From a virus (Duplodnaviria; Caudoviricetes): DNA of 53,974 bases. The stretch is taken from positions 1 to 53,974 of IMG/VR virus record IMGVR_UViG_3300028025_001902; one strand, 5' to 3'. The position numbers and the translations under genes were made by a program. Positions within the stretch are counted from its first letter, which is position 1. Each line of letters opens with the position of its first letter. The notes under the pieces are model-generated. The model worked only from the letters and a program-made list of their open reading frames with translations, was not told the origin of the DNA and did not search any database. Of the stretch, positions 7,360-27,481 are shown piece by piece.

Positions 7360-8325
7360 TTATCCTAGTGCGATTGCCATTGCTACAGCTTTATTTAGGG
7401 CTTCTGTTACTGCAAAAGCGGTTGTGGCGACTTGGGTTGTTGATGTGTTTGCTGCAGCTGTGGGTGCGGTTGGTGTACCAGTTAAAGCTGGGCTTGCTGA
7501 AAGAACAACAGAGCCAGTACCAGTAGAAGTTGTTACGCCAGTACCACCATTTGCTACTGGTAATGTTCCAGTAACACCAGTAGTTAATGGTAAACCAGTC
7601 ACATTTGTCATTATACCAGAAGCTGGAGTCCCAAGTGCTGGTGTCGTTAATGTTGGGCTAGTTAATGTTTTATTAGTAAGAGTCTGAGTGCCAGTTAATG
7701 TAGCGACAGTAGAATCAATAGCAATAGTACCACTAGTGGTAATCGTTCCACCACTAAGACCAGTACCAGCTGTAATCGAAGTTACTGTACCACCACCAGA
7801 TGTTGCTATAAGGTTAGTGCCTACACCTGCGCCAGCTGCAGTGAGATCAATATAAACACCACGAGCAGTACCACCTTGCTCAAAGAAACGAATCCTATTT
7901 TGCCAAATGTCAATTGTTACACCAGTACCAGCTATGGTAGTATTGGTTTGTGGTTTAGCGAGAAGGATTTCTCCACCTTCATCGCCAGATGAGTTCGTGC
8001 TTCTTAAATATTGGCCAAGAACATCACCAGTAGCAGTTATTGTACTGCTTGCTGCTACAGTAGTAAAGGAACCTGCAGCTGCAGTCGTCCCACCAATTAT
8101 GGCATTATTGATCGTACCACCAGAAATTACTGGTGATGTTAGAGTTTTATTGGTTAGGGTTGCTGTGGCTGAGATTGATGGAATAGAATCAATCGTATTA
8201 CTTGCGGTTTTGTAATACAGTTTACCATCGGTGTAGTTAATTGCTAACTCACCATATTCTAAGTCCCCTACAACTGGAACTCTCGCTCCAACAGAGGACT
8301 TCTTAAGAAGAACTTTATTCGCCAT
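7360..8325 (-). CDS. Fibre protein with Mtd_N-like N-terminus (candidate whisker/collar fibre)
   Basis: N-term LLKKSS..RVP...[30 protein letters not shown] shaft repeats; [14 protein letters not shown]-term AVAMAIALG. Confidence 0.7.
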
Positions 8326-8352
8326 GTCAAAACCTTAAAAAAGGAAACGAAG

Positions 8353-8382
8353 AGAGGAGTAAAAACTCCTCTTACTTATTTA
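8353..8382 (-). promoter_or_regulatory. Late promoter TAAATA (8377-8382) followed by an 8-bp-stem hairpin
   Basis: AGAGGAGT-aaaa-ACTCCTCT at 8353-8372; T-rich tract downstream on the minus strand. Confidence 0.55.
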
Positions 8383-8383
8383 A

Positions 8384-10327
8384 TTAGTATGTACCACCAT
8401 CGATGTTGAAACCATCGAGAGTTGAAGTAGCTGCACCAGCACCAGTGATGTTAGTGCCAATAAACATTGCTTTAGCAACAGATAAGCCACCAGACAATAC
8501 AACTGCAGCAGTACCAAGAGCAGAAGCATCAGTGGCAGAAGTAAGTGTTACTGCTCCAGAAGCTGCAAGAGTCGTACCACTGAAACTAGAAGAAGTGATT
8601 GTCTTATTTGAAAGACTTTCAGTTCCAGCCAATGTCGCAAGAGTACCAGTTGTTGGTAGTGTTACGCTAGTATTTGCGGTAGTGGTTACACCAAGAGTAT
8701 GTGCACCAGTGTGAGTAAAACTACCACCAAGAGTAATAGTGCTAGATCCGTTGTTTACGCCAGTACCACCGTAAGTAGCACCGATAACTGAACCATTCCA
8801 AGTACCAGTAGTAATAGTACCAAGAGTAGTAATTGTATTTTGACCAACGTAAGTTGAAGCGATATCAACAGAGTCAGAATTAATAGTAATACGATCAGCA
8901 GTACCAACTACATCAATTGTGTTACCAGTCTTAGTAAGACCAGCACCAGCAACAACTTGACCAGCACCAGAGAACTGAGCAAAGGCTAAAGCAGTTGTAC
9001 CTAATGTAATTGGATCATTAGTAGTTAAAACCCAACCAGAGTCAGCGTTTGCAGTACCTTCTTCAACGAATGTGAACATTCCAGAAGTAACTTCACCCGT
9101 AGGTGTATTATCAGCATCTGTTGAACGAGCCCATGAGCCAGAAGCAACAACATAGATACCGTTCTGTGAACCAGTGCTTTGATTCTTAACAAGAACACGA
9201 TCACCAACAGAAAGAGCAACTCCGTCAACTGTTTGTGTATTGCTTAATGTAATGTTTGCAGTAGTAGCTGCACGAACAGAACCTTTAATATCTAGACCAG
9301 TCTTAACTGCGTCAACGTATGCCTTAGTAGCTGCATCTTGAGCATCTGTAGGATCTGCAAGAGAAGTGATTCTTTTACTATTAGCATCAATAGAACCAGT
9401 GCCAGTTGGAGCGATGGAGACATTATTGTTACCAGATGCAGCTGAGAGTGATAGATTACCAGAAGTAGCAGTAATGCTTGTTGCTGTTGCAGCACCAAGA
9501 ACTGGAGTTACCAGAGTTGGAGTATTTGCAAATACTAATGCACCAGAACCAGTTTCATCAGAGATAACACCAGCAAGTTCAGCAGAAGAAGTTGCAGCAA
9601 ATACAGATAACTTGTTACTTGTATAAGTAACAGTACCACCTGCACCGAATGCCACAGAAGCAGAATCAGTACCAGTAAGAGTTAATGTATTGCTTACAGT
9701 TAATGTCTTAAGGTTTGTAATACTTAAAGTACCAGTACTTGAAGTGATTGTTAAACCATTAACTGTTTTGTTTGTTAGTGCTTGTGAGCCAGTTAGAGTG
9801 GCAACTGTCGAGTCAATGGCAACCGTAGAAGTATTTGAACCATCGCTATTTGTGACAGTAATACCAGTACCAGCAGTAACCGCACCACCAACTGTATCGT
9901 AAATAAACTCAGCAAGAGTATCTGTTGTACCATTAATGTATGGATTATTAAGAACTGTCTTACCAGTACCATTAGGAGTTAAAACAATGTTACCATTGGT
10001 ATCTGTAGAGCTAATAACATTAGTGCTACCAGTAAGAGTTAGATTACCAACATTAAGGTTATTGATTTTACTGCTGGCATCAACAACAATCGCAGATGAC
10101 GCAGTCAGCGTACCTGGAGTATGATCCAACATATCGGTAAAATACTTACCACCGATAACAAAGTGATTTGCAGCATTACCTGAGGTTTCTGTGCCTATAC
10201 CAATGTATAATCTATCACCACCATTTGATCCATTGTCTGTTAATGCTGAGTACGCTAATTCACCAGCACCCAGCGTTGCTGGATTTCCTGATACCGATGA
10301 ACGCTTTATGCGAATAATAGATGCCAT
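8384..10327 (-). CDS. Long fibre protein with Mtd_N-like N-terminus
   Basis: IRIKRSS...LGAGELAYS; DPTDAQDAATKAYVD..GLDIKGSVRAATT; VGDRVLVKNQS.GSQNGIY; C-term IDGGTY. Confidence 0.75.
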   Translation of the reverse strand: MASIIRIKRSSVSGNPATLGAGELAYSALTDNGSNGGDRLYIGIGTETSGNAANHFVIGGKYFTDMLDHTPGTLTASSAIVVDASSKINNLNVGNLTLTGSTNVISSTDTNGNIVLTPNGTGKTVLNNPYINGTTDTLAEFIYDTVGGAVTAGTGITVTNSDGSNTSTVAIDSTVATLTGSQALTNKTVNGLTITSSTGTLSITNLKTLTVSNTLTLTGTDSASVAFGAGGTVTYTSNKLSVFAATSSAELAGVISDETGSGALVFANTPTLVTPVLGAATATSITATSGNLSLSAASGNNNVSIAPTGTGSIDANSKRITSLADPTDAQDAATKAYVDAVKTGLDIKGSVRAATTANITLSNTQTVDGVALSVGDRVLVKNQSTGSQNGIYVVASGSWARSTDADNTPTGEVTSGMFTFVEEGTANADSGWVLTTNDPITLGTTALAFAQFSGAGQVVAGAGLTKTGNTIDVVGTADRITINSDSVDIASTYVGQNTITTLGTITTGTWNGSVIGATYGGTGVNNGSSTITLGGSFTHTGAHTLGVTTTANTSVTLPTTGTLATLAGTESLSNKTITSSSFSGTTLAASGAVTLTSATDASALGTAAVVLSGGLSVAKAMFIGTNITGAGAATSTLDGFNIDGGTY

Positions 10328-10341
10328 CTTTTATTTCTCCG

Positions 10342-26003: not shown

Positions 26004-26939
26004 TTAATTTGTTATATAAGTTATATTAACTGAAAAGTATGCACCACCACCATTAAATCGTAGGTATCCTTCTGTTGTATTATACTGAGACATATACAAA
26101 TTAATAATACTTGCTCCAGGTGGTGCAATAAATCCTGGATAAAGTGTTGATCCATTTGTAGATGTCATATTATACATAAGCCCAGCTGTTGCTGCAGCAC
26201 TGTTTCCACTAGATGCAGTAACGAATGGTAAACTAACAGTTTGTAAGTTATTAGTTGTTCCAGTAGATGCGTCGTACGATATTGATATAAAAAATTGCAC
26301 TAAACGACCAATTTTTGTATAATATCCAGTAGATGTAAAAGAACCACCATTGCGAGCAATAGTGCTGGTAAACGTACCTTCTTCATAATCATCTAGCGTA
26401 TTTGCGTCAGATGAAGCAACTTGAGTTGATGCAAATTTAATTTGTTGGAAACCAACACTGGAACCTTCTAGACCAATTAGCGCAGCATCGCCAGTCATAG
26501 CATTAGTGCCAGTACTTGGACCACCACCGTATCTTAATCTTGCATAACTAGAACCAGCAGTTCCAGTAATATCTAAACCAATTGTTCCAGAAGAAGAATT
26601 TTCTACTATTAGTGATGCTGTTGTTTGTCCACTTGTGCCAGAACCTTTTATGTGGTGTTTTGCCACAGGTGTAGTGGTACCAACACCAACATTACCACTA
26701 GAGTCGATACGCACCACCTCTGTACCACCTTCAGCAAAAGCAATAGTGTCAGCAGTCGGTGAAAAGATACCAGTATTAGTATCACCAGTAAATGTGATCG
26801 AAGGAGTGCTTGCAGAACCCAGTGCGTGGGTAACTGTTAGTGTTGTTGCTAACTTTGCAGTAGTAACTGAATTAGATGCTAACTCAGCCGTCTCAATGAC
26901 ACCTGTACCTAGATTAGCTGGTCCTTTTTGAATCGGCAT
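26004..26939 (-). CDS. Tail fibre with a DDYEEG-type tip
   Basis: Likely start ATG 26939 (MPIQKG); GSASTPSITFTGDTNTGIFSP; DANTLDDYEEGTFT..GYYTKIGRLV..LPF. Confidence 0.8.
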   Translation of the reverse strand: MPIQKGPANLGTGVIETAELASNSVTTAKLATTLTVTHALGSASTPSITFTGDTNTGIFSPTADTIAFAEGGTEVVRIDSSGNVGVGTTTPVAKHHIKGSGTSGQTTASLIVENSSSGTIGLDITGTAGSSYARLRYGGGPSTGTNAMTGDAALIGLEGSSVGFQQIKFASTQVASSDANTLDDYEEGTFTSTIARNGGSFTSTGYYTKIGRLVQFFISISYDASTGTTNNLQTVSLPFVTASSGNSAAATAGLMYNMTSTNGSTLYPGFIAPPGASIINLYMSQYNTTEGYLRFNGGGAYFSVNITYITN

Positions 26940-26941
26940 GA

Positions 26942-27265
26942 TCAAACATCTTCCAAAATGCTGGCTATAATGTCTAGTGACGAAGCCGTTGATGAAACAA
27001 CTTTAAGAGCATCCGTGTTTGCTAGAACAATCTTTTGTCCAGCGATAATCTGTAGTGAACCACCAACAGGAACTGGAGCACCCTTAACGATGTAGTAGTT
27101 ATTTGAACTCGAAGTGATATAAGCATCAACAGTAACACCACTATTGGTAGTATTACAAACGTCCAATTCGATGCAGATTGAGTTTTTAGAAGATGGAGCA
27201 GAATACACAGTAACTGCCGTAGTTCCGACGTTTCGTGCTAATGCATTTTTAAAGGTGTTCGCCAT
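26942..27265 (-). CDS. 107-aa beta-rich virion protein (MANTFKNA family)
   Basis: MANTFKNA, VYSAPS, N..YIVKGAPVPVGGSL, KIVL..TD.LKV, DIIASILE. Confidence 0.72.
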   Translation of the reverse strand: MANTFKNALARNVGTTAVTVYSAPSSKNSICIELDVCNTTNSGVTVDAYITSSSNNYYIVKGAPVPVGGSLQIIAGQKIVLANTDALKVVSSTASSLDIIASILEDV

Positions 27266-27271
27266 GTTTTA

Positions 27272-27481
27272 TTATCCTAATGCGATTGAAATTGCAATTG
27301 AAAAGTTTCGTCCACCATTTACAGCGGAAACGATGGTTGTTTCTCCACCAGCCAGAGTGGCTAAGTCGCCAACATCCACCACAGTTTGATTGGATTGGGA
27401 AATAACCGAATTGGTTTTTACTCGCCACTGATCAAATGAATCAGTTTGCGGTACGGTAGTGACTGGAGTTGGGAGTGCCAT
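27272..27481 (-). CDS. 69-aa fibre root/linker protein
   Basis: TDSFDQWRVKTN N-terminal motif, VGDLATL, C-term IAISIALG. Confidence 0.7.
   Translation of the reverse strand: MALPTPVTTVPQTDSFDQWRVKTNSVISQSNQTVVDVGDLATLAGGETTIVSAVNGGRNFSIAISIALG

Follow-up and report, generated by a model that had tools for sequence, protein, structure and literature searches.

We analysed a stretch of viral DNA of 53,974 bases (hereafter the window), which comes from a single viral record rated 34% complete and is a fragment of the genome of a T4-like aquatic myovirus. Between about 2 kb and 47.8 kb every gene is on the minus strand, and the segment from 7360 to 27481, between the gene of a giant DUF4815 protein and the neck gene gp13, is the host-recognition (tail-fibre) cluster of this phage. 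The cluster contains about 12 fibre-like proteins matching tail-fibre PHROGs, small chaperone-like open reading frames (ORFs) and two homing endonucleases (Table 1). Here we describe conserved ends of these fibre proteins that recur at the same gene junctions in many phages. We propose, with somewhat better than even confidence, that these ends are physical joints by which separately encoded fibre proteins are chained and branched.

Pelagimyophages and cyanomyophages have a hypervariable, fibre-rich "host recognition cluster" between VrlC and the neck genes (PMC7029224). As a fibre-rich island between a VrlC-like giant gene and neck genes, the cluster studied here belongs to this class. A megablast search with the whole cluster in 50,697 phage records found a single 66-base match, and there is therefore no close cultured relative at the DNA level; by protein, the nearest cultured phage, with the same small genes and layout, is the OM43 phage Melnitz (Kyanoviridae). 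An earlier account of the window made from its letters alone (the sequence-only reading) had proposed a code of plugs and sockets for these fibres, and every terminus and coordinate that it quoted is present in the translations.

Table 1. Genes of the fibre cluster and of its surroundings in the window (aa, amino acids; S74, Peptidase_S74; XD and XD1, domains described in the text)
Feature	Position	Strand	Basis or remark
gp5	41768-44872	-	PHROG match
gp6	38762-40591	-	PHROG match
gp7	36231-38759	-	PHROG match
gp9/10-N-like protein	35445-36218	-	PHROG and Pfam match
gp8	34034-35425	-	PHROG match
Giant 2097-aa protein with DUF4815	27705-33998	-	Pfam
69-aa mini-fibre, end ...FSIAISIALG (junction 1 tail)	27272-27481	-	FDQWR start and IALG tail kept in relatives
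107-aa MANTFKNA jellyroll protein, joint 1	26942-27265	-	relatives; fold model
311-aa fibre, MPIQKG start	26004-26939	-	tail-fibre PHROGs
581-aa fibre: MAYIG start, two XD-type (FTGDG) domains, shaft repeats, head	24196-25941	-	HMM, PHROGs
85-aa ORF, MALTK start, phrog_6228, not a fibre	23885-24142	-	kept after MAYIG gene in G001 and G004
463-aa fibre, MALSK start, C-terminal S74	22467-23858	-	Pfam E 2.4e-12, 47.4 bits
58-aa linker: shaft-repeat start, ...IAYSIVFGG tail (junction 2)	22271-22447	-	sequence
108-aa MASSFKNA jellyroll paralogue, joint 2	21930-22256	-	relatives
349-aa tip T1, MALTQV start, SAEL end	20871-21920	-	phrog_4492, E 1.1e-52
50-aa chaperone-like tip companion, GNTPLPAEE end	20718-20870	-	position of annotated Melnitz ORF (see text)
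HNH homing endonuclease, inserted in cluster	20074-20709	-	Pfam
343-aa fibre: MYFG start, XD, FTATAGQT-type XD, head ending MEIAA	19042-20073	-	HMM
101-aa chaperone-like ORF, phrog_9114	18740-19045	-	follows ...MEIAA heads in other loci
329-aa tip T2, MTQAVALAQ start, SAEL end	17751-18740	-	phrog_4492, E 1.1e-62
59-aa GNTPLPAD companion ORF	17569-17748	-	
279-aa fibre: MAYLG start, one XD, shaft, head	16730-17569	-	HMM, PHROGs
56-aa XkdW-like ORF	16560-16730	-	E 3.6e-8
369-aa tip T3, MPLTQV start, SAEL end	15451-16560	-	phrog_4492
50-aa GNTPLPADE companion ORF	15298-15450	-	
NUMOD3-bearing homing endonuclease	14647-15270	-	E 1.2e-8
285-aa hub, docking domains only: MAFIG start, XD, XD, C-terminal XD1	13790-14647	-	fold model, phmmer
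429-aa tip T4, MATYSSKKY start, SAEL end	12491-13780	-	phrog_4492
439-aa fibre, MAIRK start, S74 C-terminus	10997-12316	-	Pfam E 1.6e-12, 48 bits
111-aa ORF, phrog_1084	10559-10894	-	weaker match to L-shaped tail fibre assembly family
71-aa protein, ...NMEGGEF end	10342-10557	-	
647-aa fibre, MASIIRIKRSS start, ...IDGGTY end	8384-10327	-	
321-aa fibre, ...AMAIALG end, directly upstream of gp13	7360-8325	-	
gp13 (neck)	6402-7355	-	PHROG match
HNH-like ORF, outside fibre cluster	5813-6421		homing-endonuclease-like
gp14	4890-5813	-	PHROG match
gp15	4144-4890	-	PHROG match
Terminase (TerL)	1995-3572	-	PHROG match

A hydrophobic tail precedes a small jellyroll protein

At two places in the cluster a short ORF with an IALG-type end is followed by a MAxxFKNA protein, as had been pointed out before: the 69-aa ORF by one of 107 aa (joint 1) and the 58-aa ORF by one of 108 aa (joint 2). 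The two MAxxFKNA proteins are paralogues (30% identity, E 7.9e-9). We found 477 relatives of the 107-aa protein in the viral collection and 92 for the subfamily of the 108-aa protein, and examined the best 80 loci of each, with ORFs called mechanically from the first ATG, as in all comparative loci. Among the best 80 joint 1 loci, the upstream ORF ends in an ...(A/S)I(A)LG-type tail in 79 of the 79 that have such an ORF, at gaps of 3-16 bases, and the proteins that bear this tail range from 31 to 889 aa with at least nine unrelated starts. For joint 2, a member ORF is present in 77 of the best 80 loci, and the tail, mostly ALAYSIVFGG or AIAFAIALG(S/G), is found in all 74 that have an upstream ORF.

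The background rate of the tail motif is 6 in 3418 ORFs (170 loci fetched with other queries), and the gene that follows those six tails is the 108-aa gene in two cases, a gp13-like gene in three and, in one, a 134-aa gene that itself stands before the 108-aa gene. The pairing of tail and joint is far beyond chance. A fortuitous likeness among low-complexity fibre sequences, to which the shortness of the start motifs and the frequency of MA- starts in the window might lend some credit, is refuted by these counts, together with those for a third type of junction given below (61/63 and 39/40), and we regard its probability as practically nil.

Next we examined what travels with the joint. A tree built from 108 dereplicated joint proteins shows that tail variant and downstream start track the joint clade, while the start and the length of the upstream protein differ within clades; the co-travelling unit is therefore composed of the tail, the joint and the start of the next gene. 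The ORF downstream of the joint has an M-x-Y/F-(I/L/M) start in 51 of 66 loci and an MxY[ILM] start in 33 of 64. Furthermore, the triplet of tail, 108-aa protein and next fibre is found in cultured phages, namely Melnitz (twice), HMO-2011 and the T7-like HTVC019P, in which it comes after the tail fibre at the gp17 position. A 211-aa protein of Melnitz, placed between two other parts, combines a MAYIG start with an AIALG end, which fits a chain.

Divergent members of the 108-aa family (MSRPHSIGKN, MPNTLTSYVN and MREISVGKNL starts; six loci) follow other hydrophobic ends, such as ...TLLTLVLK and ...IVYSMVLG, which suggests that the pairing of a tail with a jellyroll is older than the IALG motif. 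In HMO-2011, two MPYIG adaptor proteins of about 150 aa are each followed by several proteins of 120-175 aa with an M(S/A)xLK start and mostly a GDLA end, a miniature of the same grammar in a podovirus.

The model of the 107-aa protein is a nine-strand beta-sandwich jellyroll (predicted local distance difference test, pLDDT, 94.5; predicted template-modelling score, pTM, 0.85). Its best matches by VIA Z are the HFTV1 turret (9.9), the trimeric KHP40 cement protein (9.8), Ena1B (9.4) and the R4C baseplate protein (8.5), with C1q/TNF heads at 7.2-7.7; because the first three rows tie within about 1 Z and are mutually unrelated, the fold is a generic jellyroll. The best Foldseek match is Ena3A (E 1e-4, TM 0.49). 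In BFVD, 204 viral models match the fold at E<=0.001, most of them of 100-120 aa, and a few longer models contain it internally. The ESM Atlas groups the 107-aa protein only with its own "virion structural protein" clusters, and phage records give the 108-aa protein the same name, with one record that speaks of a C1q-like head.

These matches bear on whether the jellyroll is a bridge or an end. If it were a cap or knob at the distal end, serving to bind a receptor or to stabilise, it would close the IALG-ended fibre and the M-x-Y-I-G fibre would attach elsewhere. The resemblance to trimeric caps and heads (KHP40 cement at Z 9.8, C1q/TNF at about 7.5) and the C1q-like name would suit this, as would the downstream start, which varies in the T4-like clade (MPIQKG, MAIVGVK, MAYIG, MALTQV). 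Across the family, however, the downstream N-terminus tracks the joint clade with the frequency given above, the joint protein is far more conserved than usual receptor-binding tips (mean column identity 59% in A2), and the Melnitz 211-aa protein suits a chain. We consider a cap quite unlikely.

Finally, we co-folded three copies of the 69-aa protein with three of the 107-aa protein. The score was 0.35 (runs 0.36, 0.35 and 0.30), whereas none of three controls scored above 0.01, with a partner pLDDT of at least 81 and at least 80% of contacts shared between runs; no interface was reported. In the calibration, 58 of the 80 solved complexes reached the mark, as did 2 of the 110 mismatches; at <=0.60 there were only 7 of the 80 and both mismatches. 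The co-fold thus lends weak support to a predicted binding of the two proteins.

Docking-type domains and a stand-alone hub

A hidden Markov model (HMM) built from copies of the domain that we call XD gave 7 matches, all in the four proteins with MAYIG, MYFG, MAYLG and MAFIG starts, which equals the six FTGDG domains and one FTATAGQT domain that had been counted by eye; after iteration, 8 matches are found in the window. The family has 9651 representatives at E<=0.001, and among the 150 best relatives 58 have an M..Y(I/L)G start and 65 an XD1 end. The FTGDG profile (A3) matches residues 118-171 and 188-245 of the K1 depolymerase 9k4a, its paired N-terminal domains (E 5.8e-12), an internal domain of the P-SCSP1u fibre (E 6.9e-7) and XD2 of TSP4 (203-249; E 0.006), and by sequence profile the FTGDG domains thus match the T4gp10-like branching domains XD2/XD3. 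Against T4 gp9-gp12 the XD HMM gave no significant match, with motif-level echoes only at gp10 243-258 and 301-319. In T4 and CBA120, XD2/XD3 are trimer-forming docking platforms for trimeric partners, which are gp11 and gp12 on T4 gp10, and TSP2 and TSP1 on CBA120 TSP4 (PMC8825819).

One of the four proteins, the 285-aa hub, consists solely of docking-type domains and has no receptor-binding head. Its monomer model has three confident domains (pLDDT >90) with disordered linkers between them. Residues 1-12 (MAFIGREPVYGA) are disordered in it too, which a docking peptide would be expected to be. Domain 3 (residues 189-285) has the XD1 fold: it aligns to TSP4 (7rej_B) at Z 17.5 (root-mean-square deviation 1.2, 99 residues, 26% identity), to T4 gp10 at Z 12.8 and to gp9 at Z 12.7. 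By phmmer, hub residues 199-283 match TSP4 91-175 (E 2.8e-10) and T4 gp10 59-139 (E 0.001), and both sequence and fold thus make domain 3 an XD1. The presence of gp10-type docking domains in this phage, claimed earlier, is borne out.

Over 65-69 residues, both FTGDG domains in the hub can be aligned with the T7 gp17 N-terminal domain (Z 9.0-9.2), with relatives up to 10.0. The rows are 7boz_b (Z 9.0, residues 5-77), 7ey9_a (9.2) and 8dsp_C (9.0), values near the common range that denote a likeness at the fold level only, and PF03906 (T7 gp17 N-terminal) scores 17.6 bits on the hub, below its cut-off of 25.2. The fold search lists one row per entry; the TSP4 and gp10 rows are those of XD1, and domains 1 and 2 match gp17-N-type domains (Z 9). 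Because the FTGDG domains have this fold and stand right after the 108-aa gene in most loci, the N-terminal copy is more probably a plug of the protein itself than a socket, which goes against the view that these domains are simply sockets. FTGDG domains may be plugs as well as sockets, and by analogy with T7 each MAYIG-type protein is probably anchored by its own first XD domain.

The order XD-XD-XD1 is also found at the C-terminal end of long proteins (800-1760 aa). After XD1-ended proteins, we observed MATYSSKKY, MSNYSTYKG, MATIYSAIKNY and MANYSDIRY starts in four lineages, in one of which the upstream N-terminal part is wholly different. The adjacency of a gp9/10-like domain and the MATYSSKKY fibre, noted before in this phage alone, thus stands and recurs. 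T4 gp12, which docks on gp10, starts MSNNTYQHVSN, and this is a resemblance only to the M(A/S)xYS starts.

A proposed three-segment chain next to the neck genes

In 61 of 63 loci, a protein with an ...M(E/D)GG(E/Y/F)(F/Y) end is followed by a MAS(I/V)IRIKR start, and in 39 of 40 a ...DGGTY end is followed by an M..(V/I).LK(K/R)S start, the fortieth being the similar MANSIKLRRS. The sequence-only reading was right about the EGGEF and DGGTY ends and their pairings, but the Mtd_N label that it gave to the starts is not confirmed: in the 8384-10327 and 7360-8325 proteins, the first 60 residues match no Pfam family at E<=10 and the whole proteins none at E<=0.01, and no Mtd chain is among the PDB sequence matches of 8384-10327.

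The last of the three proteins has a GYSIIFGF, AM(A/S)IALG or DGGTIA end, again tail-like; in the window it is the 321-aa fibre, whose AMAIALG had been noted as a third IALG end. This third tail-bearing protein may be a neck or whisker fibre. In relatives (three loci, and the genomes G001 and G002) the ...AM(A/S)IALG protein is always directly upstream of gp13, and its place is that of fibritin (wac) in T4.

Tips, their companions and the count of plugs and sockets

The cluster has four paralogous tips of about 330-430 aa, all SAEL-ended (phrog_4492, E down to 1e-62). Most of the 60 tips recognised in 80 loci are followed by an ORF of 48-69 aa ending ...GNTPxPAxE, and the Melnitz ORF at this position is annotated as a tail assembly chaperone. 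Several genes once read as fibre partners are small chaperone-like ORFs instead. The motif of the companion, ...DYQEYLKW...GNTP(L/E)PA(D/E)E, defines a very widespread small family (loci L263-L342) with no Pfam match.

At least 499 longer proteins carry the SAEL tip domain behind N-terminal parts of many unrelated kinds, and "Rosetta-stone" fusions of XD and tip account for 11 of the 120 longer tip-bearing proteins examined; since the tip is a promiscuous module, this rate argues little either way. The FTATAGQT domain and the MTQAVALA tip are adjacent as had been described, and for MT..AV..AQ-type tips an upstream fibre with FTAT(A/S)GQT is present in 5 of 9 loci, plus one with a truncated copy. 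This co-occurrence holds despite differing heads and a different or absent intervening small gene. In long fibres of podophage-type loci, the FTATAGQT subtype of XD lies directly before the IALG tail.

The sequence-only reading had gone further and had six FTGDG sockets take six plugs with M(A/P)(L/I)(T/S/R/Q)(K/Q/R) starts, and special sockets take special plugs, in one tree of about ten tips. The start motif is indeed specific to the cluster (7 of 29 ORFs, against 0 of 27 elsewhere in the window), but the seventh instance is a previously unlisted 85-aa ORF that is not a fibre, and MALxK/MALTK-type starts are the first turn of a shaft repeat that is also present inside other fibres. XD matches and MALTK-type starts number 8 and 7 in this phage, 7 and 7 in G001, 2 and 1 in G002, 4 and 2 in the partial G005, 2 and 1 in the partial G004, and 7 and 2 in Melnitz (n=6 clusters, two partial and two close relatives). 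The similar counts in this phage and G001 speak for such a pairing, although the two are close relatives and therefore count as one observation; so do the role of XD2/XD3-type domains as branching sites in CBA120 and Klebsiella phages, the co-occurrence of FTATAGQT domain and MTxAVxxAQ tip, and the existence of fibres of nine proteins in RaK2 (PMC10253068). Melnitz breaks the 1:1 rule, the independent genomes are too few for a correlation, and the first XD of each protein is folded and placed like a T7-type anchor. We hold strict one-to-one docking to be very unlikely; the six-to-six match of counts fails in Melnitz, and the single hierarchical tree with about ten tips is not supported.

Other genes and side observations

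The fibre that follows joint 1 in this phage, the 311-aa MPIQKG protein, does so also in the closest relatives, and its version in G001 ends in a SAEL tip. Both matches to the intramolecular chaperone Peptidase_S74, at the C-terminus of the 463-aa and 439-aa fibres, are above the Pfam cut-off of 22 bits. The 111-aa ORF at 10559-10894 requires a GTG start, and ATG-only calling gives 72 aa. Similar starts are found in the two HNH-like ORFs (20074-20709 and 5813-6421), while 14647-15270 bears NUMOD3 instead; an endonuclease-like ORF also precedes the hub gene in another locus (L093).

Residues ~57-136 of gp13 form an inserted small domain (...ITG..SGATA.V...), which also matches the giant DUF4815 protein of relatives and, by eye, is seen again in the 581-aa fibre, within its first XD domain (24196-25941). 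The proteins gp14, gp8 and gp7 match PHROG families of large virion structural proteins (phrog_701, phrog_19630). After the giant gene, a helical-looking 74-aa ORF (27481-27705), with no family match, is kept in all relatives examined, including Melnitz.

A model of jointed fibres

The fibre proteins would thus be built of interchangeable modules, with ends conserved across hundreds of phage contigs, and by analogy we presume them to be trimers. XD2/XD3 platforms are known in T4 and CBA120 and peptide docking in Klebsiella phages, K1-5 and G7C, and we therefore read the cluster as a kit of segments that may be chained and branched. From the observed motifs, their conservation, the folds and the domain homology, we infer contact between the conserved ends, the stoichiometry and the overall shape.

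We hypothesize three types of joint. In the first, a strand-like C-terminal tail (A-x-A-phi-x-I-A/V-L/F-G) would recruit the virion protein of ~108 aa with its jellyroll fold, which would in turn receive the next fibre, usually one with an M-x-Y-I/L-G start and a beta-sandwich of T7 gp17-N/T4gp10 type. The tail alternates large hydrophobic and small residues, and this would fit a beta-strand that packs on a sheet or extends it. In the second, a C-terminal XD1, or the XD before it, would receive an M(A/S)xYS-start fibre. In the third, ...GG(E/T)(F/Y) ends would receive MASIIRIKR-type starts and create a three-segment fibre. Furthermore, in proteins with two XD domains the first may anchor the protein and the second may carry a branch, as the FTATAGQT domain would for its MTxAVxxAQ tip, by analogy with CBA120 TSP2.

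Of these joints, the combination of the tail, the 108-aa protein and the M-x-Y-I-G plug is the best-supported, and the terminal motifs hold as conserved junctions across many phages. What stands of the proposal that the 58-aa ORF extends the tree to a second hub is that this ORF carries a second tail and 108-aa junction. More tentatively, and rather less probably than not, the tail, the ~108-aa jellyroll and the M-x-Y-I-G-XD plug would be a portable three-part joint common to T4-like, T7-like and HMO-2011-like aquatic phages, letting them chain and branch receptor-binding proteins at will. In that case the tail would complete or extend the jellyroll sheet like a donor strand, and the two joints, the XD-XD-XD1 hub and the XD branch sites would build trees with at least ten different tips.

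Several observations weigh against joints of this kind. Neither joint gene in this phage directly precedes a MAYIG gene, joint 1 being followed by MPIQKG and joint 2 by MALTQV; the third IALG-ended protein precedes gp13 and not a joint protein; and in other phages MALTQV-type tips follow another tip and not a socket protein. XD1, the domain that precedes the MATYSSKKY fibre, is described in CBA120 and T4 as a spacer and not as a docking site (PMC8825819). Among 447 candidates for longer, fused forms of the 108-aa protein none reached E<=0.001, which is weak evidence, and the name "virion structural protein" is a database-record annotation only. A co-fold pass as weak as ours is more often wrong than right unless the pairing is likely beforehand. 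Conserved adjacency among related phages can also be inherited synteny, and since the loci are often close relatives, the counts are of non-independent events.

In an alternative reading, each fibre would be attached alone to a site of its own, on the neck, on the baseplate or on the giant DUF4815 protein, with conserved ends and small genes kept as homology arms for cassette exchange and chaperones staying beside their substrates. That the cluster is a known hypervariable island (PMC7029224) is consistent with such independent fibres, as are the homing endonucleases within it, module boundaries that fall inside genes, the small chaperone-like ORFs after the tips, and a SAEL tip carried by so many unrelated N-terminal parts, with XD in so few of them. 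Against it, tails of 8-10 residues are conserved at the protein level across very distant phages (T7-like, HMO-2011-like and T4-like), XD and XD1 have docking or structural roles in solved homologues, and the hub is made only of such domains and has no receptor-binding head. We regard independent attachment as unlikely.

The modules are found in phages whose hosts are among the most abundant aquatic bacteria (SAR11, OM43, SAR116, Roseobacter and picocyanobacteria), and most fibre genes of these phages bear the label "hypothetical" or "virion structural protein". If fibres are jointed as we propose, the proteins that assemble together and the number of receptor-binding tips could be read from sequence. 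It would also be possible to locate natural exchange points for the evolution of host range, and for engineering in laboratory phage-host pairs, and a role would be proposed for a family of 477 relatives in one viral collection and 204 BFVD models.

Comparison with known systems

Chained and branched receptor-binding complexes are known in principle, while a conserved C-terminal tail with a jellyroll joint protein of ~108 aa is apparently undescribed. In the literature on pelagiphage and pelagimyophage tail fibres and on the HMO-2011 virion, with supplements outside the search, we found no description of the junction of tail, 108-aa protein and MxYIG start, and, within the same limits, no such reading of the modules in aquatic T4-like, T7-like and HMO-2011-like phages. 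Pelagimyophages and cyanomyophages have a host recognition cluster with the location, hypervariability and fibre richness of the one studied here, and the available text of PMC7029224 does not describe terminal motifs, a joint protein or docking domains.

In its combination of a gp10-like hub or anchor with fibres that have short conserved N-terminal peptides, the cluster is like the branched complexes of CBA120, G7C and Klebsiella phages. With CBA120 TSP1-4 and T4 gp10 it shares an XD1 of near-identical fold (Z 17.5 to TSP4 and 12.8 to gp10). Tandem beta-sandwich domains of ~65 aa at the fibre N-terminus are also shared, with a profile that reaches TSP4 XD2 (E 0.006), and in CBA120, as here, several receptor-binding proteins are encoded adjacently. 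The domain order differs, being XD-XD-XD1 here with XD1 at the extreme C-terminus and AD-XD1-XD2-XD3 in CBA120 TSP4 (PMC8825819). Unlike in CBA120, the hub is a stand-alone protein of 285 aa, the tips are SAEL-ended jellyroll fibres rather than beta-helix tailspikes, there is an extra type of putative joint with the 108-aa protein, and docking is predicted.

The second receptor-binding proteins of Klebsiella, K1-5 and G7C phages attach to T4gp10-like domains via short conserved N-terminal peptides. These docking peptides can be as short as 7 residues, and PhiK64-1 has 11 receptor-binding proteins (PMC6872550). The units of these systems (KP32, KP34, Menlow, PhiK64-1/RaK2, K1-5 and G7C) are the same as here, namely an anchor, a T4gp10-like branching domain and short N-terminal docking peptides, and the FTGDG profile matches the N-terminus of the K1 depolymerase (E 5.8e-12). 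Lineage and hosts differ, as the phage here is T4-like and aquatic, with docking that is predicted, and the available text of PMC6872550 does not describe conserved C-terminal tails or a separate joint protein of ~108 aa.

In fold the FTGDG domains are like the N-terminal domain of T7 gp17, and the first copy is N-terminal as in T7. Unlike in gp17, the copies are tandem and internal and PF03906 is below its cut-off; unlike T7, the phage is a myovirus with no gp11/gp12-type partners. The long tail fibre of T4 is made of the separate segments gp34, gp35, gp36 and gp37 placed end to end, with the small gp35 at a joint and chaperones encoded nearby. Its likeness to the cluster, and that of gp35 to the 108-aa protein, is one of arrangement. 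Podophages GP4, VP1 and A1002 have chain-like fibres with many small subunits hung by beta-sheet augmentation, which, unlike here, are dimers on a "rope" protein (PMC13730344). By a likeness of description, the alternating hydrophobic C-terminal tail of the fibres described here could act as a similar strand.

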